Shown one piece after another: positions 1 to 8,379 of a stretch of 8,475 nt of DNA (position 1 is the first letter of the stretch; each line of letters opens with the position of its first letter). Made by a program: the position numbers and the translations under genes. Below the pieces are notes generated by a model, which was not told where the DNA came from, did not search any database, and worked only from the letters and a program-made list of their open reading frames with translations. Source of the stretch: a virus (lineage: Duplodnaviria; Heunggongvirae; Uroviricota; Caudoviricetes); the IMG/VR virus record IMGVR_UViG_2648501235_000008; one strand, given 5' to 3'.

Positions 1-112
1 AGTCGCTGTCGTTCTCAAAATCGGTGGAGCTGCATGACAAAGTCATCGGGCATTATCTGAACATAAAACACTATCAATAAGTTGGAGTCATTACCCAAAA
101 CTTAAAAATGGA

Positions 113-1444
113 ATGCAGAAATACATTGATATTTCTCTTTGTTTGAATTTGGCTTTGTTAGATTTAAATGTCATTTTAGGTGATAAAGAGCCACAAAATA
201 GAGCTTTGGAAGGTTTGAAATCTTTAATTAAACAGTCCGATGGAATGTCTGTTCTAATTGAAAGATTTAGAAGCAGTAATTTGATTCGTCATAATCTAGT
301 GTCTTGGCCTTTAGCTAACTATACTAAATATAAAGGAGATCTTACTGAGGAGAATTTATACAGTAAGATGCATGGTATTCCACTTGATAATGATAAATTA
401 AATAAAACCCCTAGATATATTCATGCTGATGAAAAGCAGCTTTTCGATTTGATTGATGCTCTTCATACAAGAAAACTACATAAGTTTACGCATGAAAATA
501 AGCATCACTTAAAAAATTGCTCTGTTACTAAGATAAAAGATAATAAAGCTCTTGAAATAAAGGTAGGAATTGATGATAGAAGTGGTAATGACACAATAAA
601 AGTTGCGTTGGCAAATATGAGAGTTGAACGTCGTAATATTGAAAGTGCTTGCAGAAAAGATCAGTCTCCAAATTTAAGTTATGAACGACAAAGAAACCTT
701 TATCGTATTCTCAACTCGGCAACTGAAGAAAATGTGCAGATATTACTACTCCCTGAGTTATCAATTCCTGTGTCGTGGTTACCTTTTATGGCAGCACATT
801 CAAGGAGAAAACAAATATCTTTGATTTTCGGATTAGAGCATTGGGTTATTAACGAACGCGCATATAATATTTTGGTTGAAATGCTGCCTTATACTTCAAA
901 CTTTAAACACAAATCCAGTATGTTAGTTTTTCGAGTGAAAAATCATTACGCACCTAGTGAGATTACGATGCTGAATTCTTTAAGGTTAAAAATATCCTCT
1001 CCTAAACCTAGTAAACAACGGTATCATTTGATTAAGTGGAAAAACGTATCATTTTCTACATACAACTGTTTTGAACTGGCTAATATCGAGCATAGAGCAT
1101 TATTTCGTTCGCAGTTGGATATTTTATTTGCTTGCGTATGGAATCAAGATATAAATTATTATCAACATATCACTGAGTCAGCGACACGGGATTTACATTG
1201 TTATGTGGCTCAATCAAATACTTCGCATTATGGCGGTTCTTGTGTTCTACAACCGACCAGTAGCACTATTTCAAATAAGATATATGTAAAAGGTGGGGAA
1301 AACCATTGCATCCTAACTACTACTTTAAATATATATGCATTGAGAGAGGCTCAATATCGTTCATTCAGAATTAACTCCGATACTATTAAACACAATCCTC
1401 CAGGGTTTGACTATAATGCTCTATTAGAGCGAGGTGAGAAATGA
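113..1444 (+). CDS. Hypothetical 443-aa protein: unassigned N-terminal region (about aa 1-190) plus C-terminal carbon-nitrogen hydrolase (nitrilase-superfamily)-like domain; candidate defense effector
   Basis: Long ORF in the only AT-rich stretch of the window. Manual motif reading: hydrophobic strand then LLLPE (E215, nt 755-757); ISLIFG strand; FRVKNHYAPSE (K276 nt 938-940, E283 nt 959-961); FSTYNCFE (C319 nt 1067-1069); DILFACVWN; YVAQSN...GGSCVLQP. Order and spacing fit the nitrilase-superfamily E-K-E-C tetrad. No convincing SD before ATG 113, so the start is uncertain. Stop overlaps the next start (ATGA at 1441-1444). Confidence 0.7.
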   Translation: MQKYIDISLCLNLALLDLNVILGDKEPQNRALEGLKSLIKQSDGMSVLIERFRSSNLIRHNLVSWPLANYTKYKGDLTEENLYSKMHGIPLDNDKLNKTPRYIHADEKQLFDLIDALHTRKLHKFTHENKHHLKNCSVTKIKDNKALEIKVGIDDRSGNDTIKVALANMRVERRNIESACRKDQSPNLSYERQRNLYRILNSATEENVQILLLPELSIPVSWLPFMAAHSRRKQISLIFGLEHWVINERAYNILVEMLPYTSNFKHKSSMLVFRVKNHYAPSEITMLNSLRLKISSPKPSKQRYHLIKWKNVSFSTYNCFELANIEHRALFRSQLDILFACVWNQDINYYQHITESATRDLHCYVAQSNTSHYGGSCVLQPTSSTISNKIYVKGGENHCILTTTLNIYALREAQYRSFRINSDTIKHNPPGFDYNALLERGEK

Positions 1445-2130
1445 GTAGCTTTTGGGAAGGTATTTTGTCATCAAGCATTTCATTTGCAATTATTGGATTT
1501 GTTTGTAAGGCTTTTTTACAACATATTGATAAAAGAGAGTTAGAATCATTTAAAAATAAGTTGAAATATGAAAGTGAACAGAGAATTAAAGAGGATGAAC
1601 GTGCTTATAATTTTAAAAAAGCAAGAGATCTTGAAATCGGACGTTGGGGGTTAACATTACTTAGTGCTGCAAATGGTTTTTTAGGAAGGCTATGTTATAT
1701 TAAAGATCACAATGACCTATCGTCGGATCAATATTATATTGATAGTACAAGATTCTATCTATGCCAATATTTTTGCTGGGTACATCAATTCAGGAAAAAT
1801 AGAGATTCATCTGTATTTTCACCAACTAATGATGAAATGTTAATAACTGAATTAATCAAAAATATTTCTATAGCCCTACGAGAGAACGATATTGGTTTTC
1901 CTTGTATTAGATCTCTTGAACAAAAGTATATAGGTGAAAGCCTTAGCATTGGTGCTGAATGTATGTCCTATAAAGATTTTATCGATTCTAAAGTATTAGA
2001 AAACTATGCACCTCTAAATGATTTTGTTGAAGCAATTCTACAAAATAATAATAAAGATTATATCGATAAACTCGTTATCCCATTCCAAGATCTCAAGACC
2101 AGATTTGATGCGGCATTACAAAATAAATGA
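1441..2130 (+). CDS. Hypothetical 229-aa protein with N-terminal hydrophobic membrane-anchor-like segment; operon partner of the upstream gene
   Basis: ATG at 1441 overlaps the upstream TGA (ATGA). Good SD GAGG at 1431-1434, 6 nt before the ATG. Residues about 6-27 (WEGILSSSISFAIIGFVCKAFL) are hydrophobic, followed by a charged, probably helical region. Same AT-rich composition as the upstream gene. No recognisable catalytic motif. Confidence 0.65.
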   Translation: MSSFWEGILSSSISFAIIGFVCKAFLQHIDKRELESFKNKLKYESEQRIKEDERAYNFKKARDLEIGRWGLTLLSAANGFLGRLCYIKDHNDLSSDQYYIDSTRFYLCQYFCWVHQFRKNRDSSVFSPTNDEMLITELIKNISIALRENDIGFPCIRSLEQKYIGESLSIGAECMSYKDFIDSKVLENYAPLNDFVEAILQNNNKDYIDKLVIPFQDLKTRFDAALQNK

Positions 2131-2167: not shown

Positions 2168-2190
2168 CGCCCGCTTTGCGGGGCGGTTTT
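2165..2190 (+). terminator. GC-rich bulged hairpin followed by TTTT, terminator-like, overlapping the cos region
   Basis: gcccgcccgc-ttt-gcggggcgg then tttt (2187-2190), 35 nt after the ORF2 stop. The stem has one bulge. It may instead be part of the cos recognition region. Confidence 0.3.
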
Positions 2191-2212
2191 AATGCAGTTG
2201 CACTGACACGCT

Positions 2213-2240
2213 CAGACCGCGCCGGGAATGGCGCGGTCTG
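2213..2240. repeat. Perfect 11-bp inverted repeat with 6-nt loop
   Basis: cagaccgcgcc (2213-2223), loop gggaat, ggcgcggtctg (2230-2240). No flanking T-tract on either strand. Possibly a cos-flanking terminase recognition element or an RNA stability hairpin. Confidence 0.5.
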
Positions 2241-2270
2241 CAGAAAATGAGGCAGGGAAACGCATGCAAA

Positions 2271-2301
2271 GCCATGCACCTTATCGATGCATGGCTTTTT
2301 T
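2271..2301 (+). terminator. Rho-independent terminator between the convergent cargo operon and psu
   Basis: Stem gccatgca (2271-2278), 9-nt loop, tgcatggc (2288-2295), then TTTTTT (2296-2301). An A-run upstream (2268-2270) gives partial bidirectional character. Confidence 0.5.
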
Positions 2302-2331
2302 CAGTAAAAACAGGCGGATTTTCGGGGAATT

Positions 2332-2904
2332 TTACACAGACTGACGTGATGCCAGTTGCGCACTTTTACGCGAAAAAATCATGTTCTGCGCAGGGGTGAA
2401 TTTTTCACGGCTGTCATCCACCGAAGCCGCGTCAGGCCTGAATCCGATGGTCGTTAAAATGTCGCTATCCTGTGCGGAATAATTAATTTTTTCACCCTTC
2501 GCAAGCCAGGACAGGAGGGCTTCACGCAGGGCATCTGTGGCACGCTGTATGGCACAGTTTCGGGCAATGGCCGTCAGCTCACTGTAGCCCATCAGCTCCG
2601 GTGCCAGTGCCGCCGCCAGTGCTGTGCCGTGCTGCTGCATAAAATCATTCAGCCGGTCGCGGATGCTGATGTGCTGAACGGCTTCATGCGAACGAATATA
2701 ACGACCGGCAGCCTGATTCACCTGCCATTTTCTGACTTCGATAATATTGCGTAATTCGTCCAGGCGACTGACGTTTCTTCCTTCCCCTGACAGAAGCCGC
2801 AGATATTCCTGTTCGGCCGCAGCCAGCTCATTTTTGCGTTGCAGCCATGCTGCTTTGTTATTCTGACAGGTGTCAAAGGCCTGCTGTAAGGCTGTGCTTT
2901 CCAT
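2332..2904 (-). CDS. psu: Psu, polarity suppression / capsid decoration protein of P4-like satellite
   Basis: 190-aa ORF, the length of P4 Psu. N-terminus MESTALQQAFDTCQNNKAAWLQRKNELAAAEQEYL matches Psu as I recall it. Last gene of a sid-delta-psu arrangement. Confidence 0.9.
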   Translation of the reverse strand: MESTALQQAFDTCQNNKAAWLQRKNELAAAEQEYLRLLSGEGRNVSRLDELRNIIEVRKWQVNQAAGRYIRSHEAVQHISIRDRLNDFMQQHGTALAAALAPELMGYSELTAIARNCAIQRATDALREALLSWLAKGEKINYSAQDSDILTTIGFRPDAASVDDSREKFTPAQNMIFSRKSAQLASRQSV

Positions 2905-2977
2905 CGTTATCTCTTTCTCATCATGCTGAAGAATAAAAATACGGTGTGCGGCGACGGCCGGTGTTAACCGGCAGCCC

Positions 2978-3478
2978 TCATTCCAGACGCAGCGAATATG
3001 ATTGTGTTTTTAAGCGTACTGGCGGCAGTTCCTGTTTTTCATGCAGGCTTTCTGCCAGTTCGTCCGGCGTGACCGGGCGGACAATAAAACGGTTGATGGT
3101 CTGAAGCGTTTTAAACACCAGACCACATCCCGGATCCGTGCACACATAAAAACGCTCGGTGACTTCCTGAGACAGACGCCGCGATGTTCTTGACAGTGCA
3201 AGGCCTTTACATCTCCGACAACAATATCCGGTAACAAGCATTCTTTTCGGGCGTTTCATACTGCCGGAGGCTGACGTCAGTGAATCGCGGTATCTCTGTT
3301 TGCCTGAAATGTATTCCATTCCTGAATCTTTACTGTCAGAGAAAAAGCTTTCACTCGCTTCAAATGTCGCAGAGCAATAAATATTCCGGCACTGTGCAAT
3401 CATTATCTTGGTGCCATCGTCCATGAAATGTGCGCGGCGGGTGTGAGCAACATGTCCACACGACGGGCAGTAAATCAT
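2978..3478 (-). CDS. delta: Delta, late-gene transcriptional activator with tandem Ogr-type zinc-finger repeats
   Basis: 166 aa with two Cys-rich Ogr-like repeats (CPSCG...C...YC and CCRRC...C...GC). Start overlaps the sid stop (ATGA at 3475-3478). Confidence 0.9.
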   Translation of the reverse strand: MIYCPSCGHVAHTRRAHFMDDGTKIMIAQCRNIYCSATFEASESFFSDSKDSGMEYISGKQRYRDSLTSASGSMKRPKRMLVTGYCCRRCKGLALSRTSRRLSQEVTERFYVCTDPGCGLVFKTLQTINRFIVRPVTPDELAESLHEKQELPPVRLKTQSYSLRLE

Positions 3479-4209
3479 GACAGCAGTCCTCTGGCCTTAA
3501 GCACTGCTCCCTGCTGGTCTATTTTGTCCTGCCACACCTTGCGCTGTGCCGGTGTGCCTGCCACCTCATAATCCATGTGAGGAAGTGTTGCCGCTGACAG
3601 TCCGGTCAGCCGGAGAACCGGCTCGCCGGTGAGGCTGATTTGCATCTGTTTAATTTTCTGTTCCAGCGATGATTTCACCTGCTGCATGACAGCCTTTTCC
3701 GGTGCGACGTAGCCCTGATGGCCGGTGGTGTTGGCGAGCGGATTTTCCTGTACCAGAATGCTCAGATGCATTGCCCGGACAAGCGCCTCACAGGTTTCAT
3801 TCAGGGCGTGTTCCAGCTCATGCTCTGCATACAGACTCAGAAGGTGATGATGTGCCTTCCGGTAGGCGGTGGCCGTGCTGTCACACGCCCCTTTCAGGCG
3901 TTCACGTTCGAAATTCAGCACCACGGCCAGATTGTCATATTCCTGTACCAGCTCCCGGCGTGCCACGCGCTCAATGTGGCGCTGTTTCAGCTCGTCGCTC
4001 AGGACACCACCGGCTGCACGAAAGGCCGTGCGCCAGTCGTCAGCGTCGTTTCCGTCGGCCTGCGCCAGCGCATTTTTTTCCTGCTCTGCCCGTTCAATGG
4101 CCGTGACGGTCTCATCCATCAGTCGGGCGTTCTCAAGGTGGGCGGCTCTGGCCTTTTCCAGTTGTGCCAGTGCGGGTTGCAGATATTCAGGGATGGTGTT
4201 GTCAGACAT
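3475..4209 (-). CDS. sid: Sid, external capsid size-determination scaffold protein
   Basis: The track ORF runs to 4275, but the internal ATG at 4207-4209 has a strong SD (GAGGAG, complement of 4217-4222, 7-nt spacing) and gives 244 aa beginning MSDNTIPEYLQPALAQL. Helical, Q/E/A/L-rich. Position upstream of delta fits P4. Confidence 0.85.
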   Translation of the reverse strand: MSDNTIPEYLQPALAQLEKARAAHLENARLMDETVTAIERAEQEKNALAQADGNDADDWRTAFRAAGGVLSDELKQRHIERVARRELVQEYDNLAVVLNFERERLKGACDSTATAYRKAHHHLLSLYAEHELEHALNETCEALVRAMHLSILVQENPLANTTGHQGYVAPEKAVMQQVKSSLEQKIKQMQISLTGEPVLRLTGLSAATLPHMDYEVAGTPAQRKVWQDKIDQQGAVLKARGLLS

Positions 4210-4243
4210 TTTCCGGCTCCTCGTCACTTCAGGTTGAGAAAAT

Positions 4244-4299
4244 TGTGACGTACACCGGACAACAACACGACGCATTGCAGATGTGCCAGCCCTGACACA
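4244..4299. promoter_or_regulatory. Divergent late-promoter region with two TGT-N12-ACA dyads (Ogr/Delta-type activator sites)
   Basis: TGT-gacgtacaccgg-ACA at 4244-4261 (right half extends to ACAACAACA) and TGTG-ccagccctga-CACA at 4282-4299. They lie 35-90 bp upstream of the sid start on the minus strand. Confidence 0.45.
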
Positions 4300-4379
4300 G
4301 GAGACTCATCCTCACACCGGCAAGCCAGGAAAAGGTCGCTGGAAAAAACGGCTTACTGTTTATTTTTTTTATATTTTAC

Positions 4380-4483
4380 TGTTCACCTCTGTTCACCATA
4401 AGAAAAAAGATAAGTAATACAGTAAGTTAAAGGGTGAACAATCGCAGTAATGACTGTTCACCGTCTGTTCACCACTGTTCACC
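4380..4483. repeat. TGTTCACC octamer iteron cluster, P4 ori-type (alpha-protein binding sites)
   Basis: Direct TGTTCACC at 4380-4387, 4390-4397, 4455-4462, 4466-4473 and 4476-4483; inverted copy GGTGAACA at 4433-4440. An AT-rich tract (about 4355-4378) is adjacent. The octamer matches the P4 ori/crr type I iteron as I recall it. Confidence 0.6.
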
Positions 4484-4587
4484 CGTTGATGGGCTTTTTG
4501 TGCTGTTTATTACTGTTTGTTTTTATTAATTCGCCGGGAATGAATAAGAAAAAACGATTTGTATTTCACTATAAAAATTACGAATTG

Positions 4588-4617
4588 CTTTAAGTGGCTT
4601 TAAATGACTTTAAGTGG
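4588..4617 (+). repeat. Three tandem 10-bp repeats upstream of vis
   Basis: CTTTAAGTGG (4588-4597), CTTTAAATGA (4598-4607), CTTTAAGTGG (4608-4617). Candidate regulator binding array; function not determinable from sequence. Confidence 0.5.
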
Positions 4618-4762
4618 AGATGAACAAAAAATACACAAGCATTGTAAGGCTGCCGGAACAAATCCCCCCTGTTGCGTCTGCTGAAAATATTCACAAAATA
4701 AAGCGCTACCCGAAGCCGGACGGACTTATCCGGTGCTGTATGGACATTAACGAGGTAGCCCG

Positions 4763-5029
4763 ATGCAAGCTGTTTTTTCTTCCCCGTCTCCCGCCCCTGT
4801 GACGCCACTGATGCCGCTGCCGGACATCACACAGGAGCGTTTTTTACGTCTTCCGGAAGTGATGCACCTGTGCGGCCTGTCACGCTCGACCATCTATGAA
4901 CTCATCCGTAAGGGGGAATTTCCGCCGCAGGTGAGTCTTGGCGGTAAAAATGTGGCCTGGCTGCACTCTGAAGTCACCGCATGGATGGCCGGGCGCATTG
5001 CCGGACGCAAACGGGGGTACGACGCATGA
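4763..5029 (+). CDS. vis: Vis / AlpA-family helix-turn-helix DNA-binding regulator
   Basis: 88 aa, the length of P4 Vis (orf88). Core [30 protein letters not shown] is a typical AlpA-family HTH. SD GAGG at 4751-4754, 7 nt before the ATG. Confidence 0.85.
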
Positions 5030-5625
5030 TGATGCCCGCTCTGCAAAAACTCCCTTTTTCTGGCTTGCCTTTTTCCGGCATTTGCGGATATAGTTTTTCC
5101 GCTGTCGCAAAATCGGCAGCCGGGCGTGGAAACCCGAGCAATCTAACGGCGACATATGACGCGCCATGCGTCTTTTTTTGTGTCGCAATCAACGCCACAG
5201 AGCGCCAGATTATGGTGTGGTGTGTGGTCAGTCGAGCAGATGGCACTCCGTGCATCCTGCCCGCGTCCGCTCATTATGCCGCAGAGTCAATGGTAGCTCA
5301 GGCGGGGCAGCCTCCGGGCTGGCCGGTATCCGTTAGAGCCGGTATTTCCACCCCCGTCTGGGCTATCGCCATCGAGCGTGGAAACTCCGGCGATAGCGTA
5401 ACCTGCTATCTAACGGAGGCTGCCATCATGGCTACAACCCTTACCCCTTCACACCCTGAATTTGTCTTTGTGTTTGCGGCTGTCCGTCGCGCAGACCGTC
5501 ATCCCCGTATCTGCATGCTTCGCACCGTCGCCGGTGATGAACGCAGTGCCCGCCGTTCCCTTGTCCGTGACTATGTGCTCTCCCTTGCTGCCCGTCTGCC
5601 GGTGGTGGAGGTGTCCCGTGCGTAA
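5026..5625 (+). CDS. 199-codon ORF spanning the immunity region (P4 orf199-like); translation uncertain
   Basis: ATGATGATG at 5026-5034 overlaps the vis stop (ATGA). The length equals P4 orf199 from memory. Composition is weakly protein-like and the frame covers the seqA/B/C-like RNA elements, so it may not be translated as a whole. Confidence 0.3.
5065..5094 (+). promoter_or_regulatory. Candidate sigma70 promoter, PLE-like
   Basis: TTGCCT (5065-5070), 18-nt spacer, TATAGT (5089-5094). Lies just downstream of vis and upstream of the seqA-like element. Confidence 0.3.
5124..5416 (+). ncRNA. Immunity-type region with seqA / seqB / seqC-like elements; candidate cI-type regulatory RNA locus
   Basis: Direct copies of GCGTGGAAAC (5124-5133, 5376-5385) and ATCTAACGG (5141-5149, 5408-5416). 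Between them, 5330-5353 (ccgttagagccggtatttccaccc) is the inverted complement of both blocks (CCGTTAGA / TTTCCAC). A 9-bp hairpin (5362-5370 / 5389-5397) encloses the second GCGTGGAAAC. Precise RNA ends cannot be set from sequence. Confidence 0.4.
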
Positions 5626-5905
5626 TAAAAAAGCCCCTCAGACCGTCTCAGCGCGTCATGACGCCCGTGAACACCTCAGCATTGAGGCTTACCATAAGCT
5701 CAACCGCGCCAGCGCCGTATCCCAGTTTGTTGGGGGTGATTTGATTCACCGTGAACTCTCCGGCCTGCATCAGCTCTACATTCCGCATATTTTCAGCTAC
5801 CTGAATGAAGATATTGATTTTGTGCTGAATGAGCTGAAAGCCAAAGGCCTGTGCCGCGATTTTCTCGCCCAGCAGAAAGACCGGGGAGACAGGACGCATG
5901 TTTGA
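5618..5905 (+). CDS. 95-aa protein in the position of P4 epsilon (derepression protein); identity not established
   Basis: GTG start at 5618 with SD GGAGG (5607-5611, 6-nt spacing). The 52 codons upstream in the track ORF (from 5462) are not protein-like and overlap the preceding ORF. The 3' end overlaps the next start. Confidence 0.45.
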
Positions 5906-6353
5906 TTTTCCCCAGCCCGGTGAGATTTACCGTTCTGCCGGTTTTCCCGATGTGGCCGTGGTCGGCATTCTGGAAGACGGTATTCCGTGGGAAATGCCGT
6001 ACCGCTGTCCGGACATTGTCTGGAACCCGTACCGCCGAAAATTCAGTATCCTTGTGCGTATCCTCACTGACGGGCGCACCACAGACATCCCGCTGGGGCG
6101 TTTTCTGCGGGAATTTACCTGTGACCGTCCTGACCTGTTCAAACGCAGCCCCGTAAACCGGCATGCGGTACTGAAAGAAATGGCCGGAGACCCGGAATTA
6201 CAGAAATGGCGGGAGAAATATCTGGATATTTACCCGCAGGACACTGTTCCGGCCAGCCGGGCGGCACCGGTGGCGCGGGAATGGCGGGAAATTCCCCGCA
6301 CGGAGCCTGACCCGGAAATCACCCCGGATAACAGTTACCGCAATTATCTGTAA
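5898..6353 (+). CDS. 151-aa protein, P4 orf151-like
   Basis: Length equals P4 orf151 from memory. Protein-like composition, same strand and operon as alpha. Start overlaps the upstream stop. Confidence 0.6.
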   Translation: MFDFPQPGEIYRSAGFPDVAVVGILEDGIPWEMPYRCPDIVWNPYRRKFSILVRILTDGRTTDIPLGRFLREFTCDRPDLFKRSPVNRHAVLKEMAGDPELQKWREKYLDIYPQDTVPASRAAPVAREWREIPRTEPDPEITPDNSYRNYL

Positions 6354-6488
6354 TTAAAAAACGACACCCGAAAAATTAAATGTGCGTATTCGCGCAGGGA
6401 TACGCACGTCTTCAGGAGACGCAGATATGCCTTATCAGTTAATGCAACCGGCACGGAATGCAGTCATCTGTCACAGGGAGGAAAACAA

Positions 6489-6809
6489 ATGAAAACACCC
6501 TTACCGCCCGTCTTACGCGCTGCCCTTTACCGTCGCGCTGTCGCCTGTGCCTGGCTGACCGTGTGCGAACGTCAGCACCGCTACCCGCATCTCACCCTTG
6601 AATCACTGGAGGCGGCCATCGCCGCTGAGCTGGAGGGCTTTTATCTGCGCCAGCACGGTGAGGAAAAAGGGCGTCAGATAGCCTGTGCCCTGCTGGAAGA
6701 TTTAATGGAATCCGGCCCCCTGAAGGCCGCGCCGTCGCTGTCCTTTCTCGGGCTGGTTGTGATGGATGAACTCTGTGCCCGTCACATAAAAGCGCCGGTA
6801 CTGCACTGA
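6489..6809 (+). CDS. 106-aa hypothetical protein immediately upstream of alpha
   Basis: Strong SD GGGAGG (6475-6480, 7-nt spacing). Stop lies 14 nt before the alpha start. Confidence 0.55.
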
Positions 6810-6823
6810 AGGAGAACAACACC

Positions 6824-8379
6824 ATGAAAATGAACGTAACCGCCACCGTCAGCCATGCGCTCGGCCACTGGCCGCGTATTCTCCCGGCGCTGGGGATTCA
6901 GGTGCTGAAGAACCGTCATCAGCCCTGTCCGGTCTGTGGCGGGAGTGACCGTTTCCGTTTTGATGACAGGGAGGGGCGCGGCACCTGGTACTGCAATCAG
7001 TGTGGTGCCGGTGACGGCCTGAAACTGGTTGAAAAGGTGTTTGGTGTTTCCCCGTCCGATGCGGCCGCAAAGGTGGCTGCCGTGACCGGCAGCCTGCCCC
7101 CTGCTGACCCGGCAGTGACGGCTGCCGCCGGTGCTGAAACAGACGCTGCCCGGAAGAACGCCGCCGCACTGGCACAAACCCTGATGGCGAAAACCCGTCC
7201 CGGAACCGGTAACGCCTACCTGACCCGCAAGGGCTTTCCCGGCCGGGAATGCCGGATGCTGACCGGCACACACAGAGCCGGTGGCGTGAGCTGGCGTGCC
7301 GGTGACCTTGTGGTGCCACTGTATGACGACAGCGGCGAACTGGTTAACCTTCAGTTAATCAGTGCTGACGGCCGTAAGCGCACCCTGAAAGGCGGACAGG
7401 TCAGGGGCACCTGTCACACCCTTGAAGGACAGAATCAGGCCGGAAAACGTCTGTGGATAGCGGAGGGATACGCGACCGCACTTACCGTGCATCACCTGAC
7501 CGGTGAAACGGTGATGGTGGCGCTTTCTTCCGTGAATCTCCTTTCTCTGGCCAGCCTTGCCCGGCAGAAGCATCCGGCCTGTCAGATTGTCCTTGCTGCT
7601 GACCGTGACCTCAGCGGTGACGGCCAGAAAAAAGCCGCCGCAGCCGCAGGTGCGTGTGAAGGTGTTGTTGCCCTGCCGCCGGTCTTCGGTGACTGGAATG
7701 ATGCCTTCACGCAGTACGGCGGGGAAGCCACCCGTAAGGCCATTTATGATGCCATCCGGCCACCGGCTGAAAGCCCGTTCGACACCATGAGCGAAGCGGA
7801 GTTTTCCGCCATGAGTACCAGCGAAAAGGCCATGCGTATCTATGAGCATTACGGCGAGGCGCTCGCGGTCGATGCCAACGGCCAGCTTCTGTCCCGCTAT
7901 GAAAATGGTGTCTGGAAGGTGCTGCCGCCACAGGACTTTGCCCGGGATGTGGCCGGGCTGTTTCAGCGGCTGCGCGCGCCGTTCTCCTCCGGGAAGGTGG
8001 CCTCCGTGGTGGACACCCTGAAGCTGATTATTCCGCAGCAGGAAGCCCCCTCCCGCCGCCTGATTGGCTTTCGTAACGGCGTGCTCGACACGCAGAACGG
8101 CACGTTCCACCCGCACAGTCCGTCACACTGGATGCGCACCCTGTGCGATGTGGATTTCACCCCGCCGGTGGACGGTGAAACGCTGGAGACCCACGCCCCC
8201 GCGTTCTGGCGCTGGCTTGACCGTGCCGCCGGTGGCCGTGCGGAAAAACGCGACGTGATTCTGGCCGCACTGTTTATGGTGCTGGCAAACCGCTACGACT
8301 GGCAGCTCTTTCTGGAGGTGACCGGTCCCGGCGGCAGCGGCAAAAGTATCATGGCCGAAATCGCCACCCTGCTGGCCGG
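6824..8379 (+). CDS. alpha: Alpha primase-helicase (zinc-ribbon, TOPRIM primase, D5-like helicase with Walker A); 3' part absent or interrupted
   Basis: SD GGAG at 6811-6814. N-terminal zinc motif CPVCGGSDRF...WYCNQCG; TOPRIM-like LWIAEGYATALTV and VLAADRD; Walker A GPGGSGKS at 8327-8346. The frame stays open to 8475, but the expected helicase-like character is lost after 8379. Not in the ORF track because no stop occurs in the window. Confidence 0.85.

Follow-up and report, generated by a model that had tools for sequence, protein, structure and literature searches.

Positions 5026–5625 of the DNA analysed here, an 8,475-nt stretch referred to below as the window, are occupied by one long open reading frame on the plus strand, within which short words recur in direct and complementary copies. 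The question raised by this locus is whether it is essentially a protein gene in which the repeats are incidental, or a set of RNA elements spanned by an open frame. We conclude that the region is the antisense-RNA immunity switch of a P4-family satellite prophage in E. coli, working in the manner of P4, and we attach to this reading a probability of about 0.93. The system is one already known. The element is an ordinary natural allele of P4 immunity, its mechanism is not new, and the established picture of P4 immunity is left unchanged.

Repeats and gene context

Analysis of the repeats revealed two exact copies of GCGTGGAAAC, at 5124–5133 and 5376–5385, and two of ATCTAACGG, at 5141–5149 and 5408–5416, the latter word having in addition a minus-strand complement with one mismatch at 5330–5338. 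The complements of both words lie between the direct copies, at 5329–5351. A repeat search of the window gave the same picture as the exact-word search, returning the direct families D1 and D4, the inverted pairs I1, I2 (5117–5132 with 5345–5360) and I7 (5329–5337 with 5409–5417, 9/9) and a 9-bp hairpin, I8 (5362–5370 with 5389–5397). Both searches recovered the two direct copies flanking an inverted complement that the first-pass annotation had described. The hairpin that it had drawn around the second copy is real, with the full 9 bp, and encloses the GCGTGGAAAC half of that copy; the ATCTAACGG half lies 3′ of it. Taken singly, the two words are within chance, the observed counts being reached in 34/200 and 37/200 shuffles when one mismatch is allowed. 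It is the joint arrangement that exceeds chance: none of 2000 first-order Markov simulations of the window produced an 8-mer and a nearby 7-mer that both recur, in the same order, as a direct, an inverted and again a direct copy.

The first-pass annotation had likened this arrangement to the logic of P4 immunity, with seqA, a cI-encoded seqB and seqC, and had proposed alignment to the P4 immunity region as a check. That alignment extends over 1001 nt at 96.4% identity, and the likeness is borne out further by matches to the Rfam families C4 and isrK and by compensatory variation among 47 relatives, described below. The homology continues well beyond the immunity region. Window positions 2168–8379 match P4 at 98.1% identity over 6212 nt; the match is in reverse orientation and extends from the cos end of P4 into alpha. 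This 6.2-kb block holds the P4 genes psu, delta, sid, vis, epsilon, orf151, orf106 and alpha (P4 annotation and Pfam), of which psu, delta and sid are divergent and lie on the minus strand. The plus-strand gene vis (P4 ORF88 in NC_001609; 4763–5029), which encodes an AlpA-family excisionase/regulator (Pfam Phage_AlpA, E=7e-21), lies just 5′ of the immunity region and ends in a stop codon that overlaps the start codons of the long frame. Downstream, epsilon (5618–5905, plus strand) encodes the helper derepression protein (P4 annotation; Pfam Derepression, E=8e-51) and would be the first gene silenced by the immunity, followed by orf151, orf106 (DUF5375) and alpha, of which only the start is inside the window.

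Gene order, promoter, terminator t1, CI fold, nested kil and eta frames and flanking genes are all the same as in P4. The order PLE–seqA–t1–cI–seqC–kil/eta is reportedly that set out in the papers on P4 immunity by Ghisotti (1992), Sabbattini (1995), Forti (1995 and 1999) and Briani (2000). We assign the locus to the P4 immunity systems on the grounds of its homology to the P4 region in a P4 gene context, a C4-family RNA gene between two targets, the presence of PLE and t1, nested kil and eta with seqC at the kil ribosome-binding site, and a seqB complementary to both seqA and seqC on one strand, the complementarity having been kept in evolution.

The RT-nitrilase gene, a neighbouring defence gene, is truncated at the left edge of the window, where it adjoins one end of IS1, and the hotspot of the prophage is occupied by a DRT-type reverse transcriptase system. 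No integrase was found within the window or between IS1 and the hotspot, unlike in an intact relative, where the integrase is beside tRNA-Leu. Because the left end is damaged by the IS1 truncation and the integrase is absent from the window, the prophage may be cryptic, even with its immunity cassette intact. Damage of this kind would also fit a case in which the elements, though intact, are an inert remnant in a cryptic prophage that is decaying, neither expressed nor selected in the host strain. We consider this very unlikely. By comparison with P4, there is no disabling change in the promoter, t1, cI, seqA, seqC, kil or eta. Moreover, of 5426 complete E. coli genomes, 55 carry an exact copy of the 45-nt segment around seqB, which covers the greater part of the CI RNA (the P4 allele is present in 206), and published TraDIS work in Salmonella Typhi indicates a requirement for the IsrK-like elements of P4-like prophages. 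The region as a whole is matched in 1253 of the 5426 genomes.

The CI RNA and its two targets

The leader begins at a PLE-type sigma-70 promoter on the plus strand at 5065–5094, recognised in a consensus scan as TTGCCT, an 18-nt spacer and TATAGT. The stretch is identical to that in P4, and X02534 has its −10 hexamer annotated at the corresponding position. We infer a transcript start near 5101, the position at which the Rfam isrK model begins. This model (RF01394) matches the leader, or SeqA RNA, at 5101–5178 on the plus strand with 72.5 bits against a gathering score of 50, all of model positions 1–77 being covered. The leader comprises a hairpin at 5101–5120, a second at 5121–5136 and the terminator t1. 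The c4-a1b1 model (RF03163), aligned in full length to 5088–5140, scores 45.8 bits (E=3e-9), which is 0.9 bit below its gathering score of 46.7.

Both halves of seqA lie in this leader on the plus strand. The first, GUGGAAA (5126–5132), occupies the loop of hairpin 5121–5136 and pairs with the seqB tail at 5345–5351; in an alignment of 47 distinct sequences, from which all our covariation counts are drawn, this helix is paired in 99.7% of cells and shows GC/AU to AU/GC covariation at two positions. The second, UCUAACGG (5142–5149), is single-stranded and pairs with the seqB loop at 5330–5337, and in six of these eight pairs both sides are changed among the 47 sequences. Between seqA and cI stands the intrinsic terminator t1 (5158–5179, plus strand), identified by consensus scan and by Rfam, in which GACGC-GCCAU-GCGUC (5158–5172) is followed by U7. 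Its stem is conserved, with one covarying pair, GC to CG. Promoter and t1 are thus found at the places expected of them by the consensus scan, and both are identical or near-identical to their P4 counterparts.

The isrK family takes its name from IsrK/STnc1160 of the Salmonella prophage Gifsy-1, and it is the model of this RNA that the leader of the window matches end to end. Its authors describe IsrK as a structural homologue of the P4 SeqA RNA, with a CI-like processed RNA following it, and according to published work C4 and IsrK are what the P4 literature calls the CI RNA and seqA. The roles of the two leaders differ: IsrK, in a lambdoid prophage, activates the translation of orf45-anrP in trans, whereas the leader of the window would, by analogy with P4, be a cis target of the CI RNA.

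The cI gene at 5286–5373 (plus strand) matches the Rfam family C4 (RF01695) with 76.2 bits against a gathering score of 45 (E=5e-14). The predicted CI RNA has a long closing stem, 5291–5307 with 5352–5368, which carries two hairpins. Its minimum free energy is −48.1 kcal/mol (z=−4.4 to −4.9), equalled by none of 200 shuffles, and in the 47 sequences all cells of its three helices are paired, with covariation. Two modules of seqB are presented by this fold on the plus strand. The loop module, UCCGUUAGA (5329–5337), is the loop of hairpin 2 and is probably the main determinant of specificity; the tail module, UUUCCAC (5345–5351), is unpaired between hairpin 2 and the closing stem. When the CI fold and the seqA:seqB helices are scored together, 97.8% of cells are paired, with 181 double-change cells against 56 in shuffles.

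Downstream of cI, a 9-bp hairpin on the plus strand (5362–5397; 5362–5370 with 5389–5397) holds the first half of seqC in its loop. Four of its pairs are changed on both sides and 99.8% of cells are paired. The 5′ arm of this hairpin doubles as the 3′ strand of the stem that closes the CI fold, so that only one of the two structures can form at a time. At two variable positions, the CI stem undergoes only G-C to G-U or U-A to U-G changes, and the downstream hairpin undergoes true double changes; from these pair changes, both conformations appear to be under selection. The hairpin may be the counterpart of t4, the atypical terminator of P4. The first half of seqC, GUGGAAA (5378–5384, plus strand), pairs with the seqB tail in 100% of cells, with two covarying pairs. 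The second half, UCUAACGGA (5409–5417, plus strand), pairs 9/9 with the seqB loop and overlaps GGAGG (5415–5419), the Shine-Dalgarno sequence of kil. For seqB:seqC and the downstream hairpin together, 98.1% of cells are paired, and there are 160 double-change cells against 49 in shuffles. The unpaired cells in the second half of seqC reflect a 1-nt alignment shift in GATAAC-type sequences, which are 9/9 complementary in a complementarity scan. Controls with slid partners were paired in 35–46% of cells.

Co-folding of the CI RNA with the leader by RNAcofold gave no favourable complex (ddG +2.5), in a calculation whose nested folding cannot represent loop–loop, or pseudoknotted, contacts. The co-fold would need the very stable CI stem to be opened.

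These elements suggest the following course of events. Constitutive transcription from PLE would produce a leader carrying seqA, t1, cI, seqC and kil in that order. The cI segment would fold as a tRNA-acceptor-like stem with two hairpins and be excised as a CI RNA of about 78–79 nt, by RNase P and 3′ trimming (PNPase) if processing is as in P4; the CI RNA is listed among the substrates of RNase P. The exposed hairpin loop and unpaired tail would together act as seqB. Pairing of seqB with seqA would bring about termination at t1 and with it the autoregulation of the CI RNA. Pairing with seqC would cover the kil ribosome-binding site, and kil translation is predicted to be blocked because the second half of seqC overlaps that site; transcription would then end before epsilon and the alpha primase gene. 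The prophage would in this way be kept quiescent, and incoming satellites with the same target sequences would be shut down. Transcripts from the upstream late promoter, PLL, would be translated throughout as eta and so be shielded from the block. In P4 the immunity factor is an RNA, the antisense CI RNA, which is processed from the leader and whose pairing with seqA and seqC leads to premature termination; it is from this literature that we infer, for the window, that the RNA is processed, that CI makes transcription terminate at t1, t4 and timm, and that eta translation allows read-through.

A similar layout is known from the immI systems of phages P1 and P7, in which the c4 RNA acts on the targets a1/b1 and a2/b2 (RF01695 and RF03163). 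The RNA family, the fold and the two recognition segments are as in the window; in both, the transcript that contains the RNA gene also carries a target pair on either side of that gene, and the downstream target is at the ribosome-binding site of a small Icd-like open reading frame. The cassette might accordingly be of the immI type, with a c4 RNA controlling an icd-ant antirepressor operon, rather than a P4-type control of replication genes. The shared C4 family, the Icd-like domain of Kil and the common order of target, RNA, target and ribosome-binding site would all fit this, as would the occurrence of related cassettes in P1-like and N15-like phages and in loci with non-P4 upstream sequence that lack a vis-like end (L014, L017, L018, L046 and others). 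The flanks of the cassette, however, are P4 genes at 98% identity, vis on one side and epsilon, orf151, orf106 and alpha primase on the other. No Ant homologue is encoded downstream of kil, where epsilon, orf151, the DUF5375 gene and alpha are found instead, and P1-family phages match only some 110–180 nt at 70–80% identity. We give membership of immI scarcely any credence. The P1 and P7 systems control ant in a plasmid prophage, whereas the genes at stake in the window are epsilon and alpha in a satellite, and we conclude that the P4-type cassette of the window works like immI but is no member of it.

The eta and kil reading frame

The long plus-strand frame, 5026–5625, comprises 199, 198 or 197 codons according to whether it is read from the ATG at 5026, 5029 or 5032, which together form ATGATGATG at 5026–5034. 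Promoter, seqA, cI and seqC all lie within it, and kil (5428–5625, plus strand), which shares its frame and stop codon, makes up its last 65 codons and encodes an Icd-like protein (NCBIfam phage_ICD_like at residues 146–193 of the long product). We take these frames to be the nested eta and kil genes of P4. The Eta products of the window and of P4 are 93% identical, differing at 14 residues, all of them within residues 1–134 and none conservative, and the Kil products are identical.

It might be held that the region is essentially protein-coding, for a 137-residue 'cI transcriptional repressor' or an 'Ash family' protein, and that its repeats are incidental. NC_001609 does annotate a 137-residue cI 'transcriptional repressor' at this place, Pfam Phage_ASH matches Eta residues 22–146 with E=1e-28, and the frame is open and conserved among relatives. 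The pattern of substitution does not support this. In kil, pairwise differences fall 72/71/274 at the three codon positions, with a synonymous to nonsynonymous ratio of 239:104; in the eta spacer the corresponding counts are 12/9/11 and 9:17, all of these being pairwise counts that are not phylogenetically independent. Upstream of kil there is thus neither a third-position excess nor a synonymous surplus, and pairwise codon-position counts over the leader, CI and seqC similarly show no third-position excess. All 14 amino acid differences from P4 lie in this upstream part, where substitutions obey base-pairing between three separate sites. Pfam and NCBIfam searches of the frame found no DNA-binding or helix-turn-helix domain, and the literature has the P4 immunity factor as an RNA. 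The protein-repressor reading is largely refuted, and we hold it to be extremely improbable that the region is essentially protein-coding.

The frame is nevertheless kept open. It is conserved in about 70 of 75 related loci, and ahead of kil it continues for at least 110 codons without a stop in nearly all of them, distant loci whose upstream genes are unrelated included; in the two alternative frames, the open stretches there usually reach only 16–60 codons. The distance between seqA and seqB takes seven values (145, 151, 157, 193, 196, 199 and 202), all congruent modulo 3, and the lone exception, a distance of 201 in locus L059, accompanies a broken frame. Judged by these comparisons, protein-like constraint is confined to kil and the upstream 134 codons appear free of constraint at the amino acid level. 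An open, in-phase frame without protein constraint fits translation as such being the function. The upstream part of eta is probably translated, but its sequence would be dictated by the RNA elements. The first-pass annotation had suspected the 199-codon frame of being largely non-coding, which agrees with the lack of amino acid constraint over the upstream 134 codons; it does not hold for the 65 codons of kil, which evolve as a gene, and the upstream frame is itself kept open. Forti et al. (1999, J Bacteriol 181:5225) are said to have found that eta is translated from upstream PLL transcripts, that this translation prevents termination, and that on PLE transcripts kil comes first in translation.

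The region is properly annotated as PLE, seqA with t1, cI (the CI RNA), seqC and kil/eta; it is misleading to call it 'transcriptional repressor', 'ash family protein' or 'hypothetical protein'. Both the P4 RefSeq record and Pfam PF10554 (Phage_ASH) carry the older protein reading of what is mainly an RNA region, and the locus of one relative is entered in RefSeq as an 'ash family protein' pseudogene.

Specificity alleles among relatives

Comparison of positions 5030–5640 with P4 reveals about 25 differing positions, mostly in seqA, seqB and seqC. Ten or so mutually compensatory substitutions are concentrated in these three elements, and four more lie between the two halves of seqC. In seqA, GUGAGAA followed by UUCACAGG in P4 corresponds to GUGGAAA followed by UCUAACGG in the window, and seqC has undergone the same change. 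In seqB, CCUGUGAA and UUCUCAC in P4 are replaced by CCGUUAGA and UUUCCAC, such that the loop reads UCCGUUAGA in the window and UCCUGUGAA in P4.

The consequences for pairing were estimated from duplex energies computed on isolated seqA, seqB and seqC segments, not on whole folded RNAs. On this basis, seqB of the window forms duplexes of −34.6 and −33.1 kcal/mol with its own seqA and seqC, but only of −20.7 and −23.8 kcal/mol with those of P4; the P4 duplexes have energies of −35.4 and −33.9 kcal/mol, respectively. Matched substitutions together with weaker cross duplexes form the pattern expected for a changed immunity specificity. A precedent is offered by the P4-like retronphage phiR73, which Sabbattini et al. 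(1996) reportedly found to be heteroimmune to P4 and in which a change of specificity goes with matched changes in seqB and its targets, of the kind seen in the window. The two elements differ in their hotspots, phiR73 having retron Ec73 in place of the DRT-type system. From the duplex energies and this precedent, we predict that the element most likely falls in another specificity group than P4 and is heteroimmune to it. The matched substitutions point to a means by which satellites may diversify superinfection immunity, through a handful of base changes at three sites.

To place these alleles, IMG/VR was scanned with the CI scaffold and degenerate seqB positions, which gave 48 loci, and one genome per species was scanned with a looser CI pattern, which gave 27, including loci in Yersinia, Serratia, Pantoea, Pectobacterium, Klebsiella and Enterobacter. 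Targets were located by complementarity scan. One match, L054 from Micromonospora, was excluded as a chance occurrence of the pattern without complementary targets. Among the roughly 75 related loci there are at least 12 loop alleles (hexamers) and two tail alleles, and in almost every locus both targets, the upstream and the downstream one, fit the seqB found there. The P4-type and window-type loops and tails occur in all four combinations, which therefore imply recombination.

Taken together, these observations lead us to favour, by a modest degree, a joint reading in which specificity is a combinatorial code of two modules, with at least 12 loop and two tail alleles mirrored in seqA and seqC, shuffled by recombination across Enterobacterales satellites and unrelated prophages. 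Under this code, a GUUAGA loop with a UUUCCAC tail would define a group heteroimmune to P4, and the N-terminal two-thirds of eta would be kept as an open frame only, for ribosome override. The survey provides a catalogue of natural specificity alleles, mismatched-target recombinants among them, with which the rules of antisense switches may be probed. In L022 the seqA type differs from that of its own seqB and seqC, and in L029 and L020 the targets are partly mismatched; if the combinatorial code is correct, recombinants with a mismatched seqA (L022 and L029) would be partly deregulated variants. The loop and tail combination of the window is the commonest among the retrieved loci.

Pairing of the seqB loop with its two targets

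Among the 47 distinct sequences aligned, the two duplexes that the CI RNA can form with its targets are of unequal length. U 5329 in the seqB loop lies opposite a C of seqA (window 5150) and is never paired, in 47 of 47 sequences; opposite seqC (window 5417) the same residue meets A in 44 sequences and G in the remaining 3. The seqC duplex is consequently 1 bp longer than the seqA duplex, and consistently so.

Three of the related loci are natural recombinants whose targets are mismatched. At L022 (8609–8948), seqB and seqC are of the same type, with a TGTGAA loop and a TTTCCAC tail, and seqA is of a different type, with GTGAGAA and TCTAACGG. At L029 (6842–7181) and L020 (6932–7271), the second half of seqA or of seqC fails to match the seqB loop TATGAC, and at L029 the eta frame is also broken.

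Protein labels and distribution of the cassette

The region spanning seqA, CI and seqC is covered by a protein family, Pfam PF10554 (Phage_ASH), at window 5089–5463, equivalent to eta residues 22–146. Conservation across this interval is driven by the RNA and not by protein. In the P4 RefSeq record, a 137-aa ORF at the same region is still labelled 'transcriptional repressor', and in E. coli RefSeq the region appears as two separate features, a pseudogene named 'ash family protein' and a protein named 'Icd-like'.

Loci with a seqA-to-seqB distance of 157 nt (L014, L017, L018, L039, L046, L049, L051, L057, L067, L068, L072 and L073) have the promoter, seqA, t1, CI, seqC and Icd-like ORF all in place around a spacer that is 45 nt shorter, and they also keep a long in-frame ORF upstream. 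Because their upstream sequence is unrelated to the vis end of P4, the gene context of these cassettes probably differs from that of P4.

CI-like sequences also occur in records with hosts outside the Enterobacterales: a Ralstonia syzygii contig of 957 nt (L075), Ralstonia phage YO084_2 (H22), and two MAGs labelled Clostridiales and 'bacterium' (L055 and L071). The short MAG contigs resemble enterobacterial P4-like DNA, so that contamination or mis-binning is possible for these records; the Ralstonia matches may be genuine distant relatives.

Left end and alpha gene

The left end opens with an IS1 end (window 1–103, 98–100% identity), adjoined by an ORF at 113..1444 whose match to the PADLOC RT_UG5-nitrilase model of DRT type 1 is confined to the C-terminal portion (profile positions 516–958 of 958) and then by a full-length RTasTM partner ORF at 1441..2130. 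Together, these features indicate that the P4 hotspot beside cos (about 2168) holds a DRT defence system whose RT gene has been cut off by IS1. In a relative, L078, the RT gene is complete at 2.9 kb, frameshifted according to the annotation, and an integrase gene lies beside tRNA-Leu.

Within the alpha gene, a second direct/inverted/direct triple of an 8-mer, GTGCCGGT, is found at window 7005, 7262 and 7296. It is probably due to chance, since about 10% of simulated windows have a single triple of this kind. Near-identity with P4 and the closest E. coli relatives ends at 8379, within this primase gene, and the final 96 bases of the window, up to 8475, diverge.
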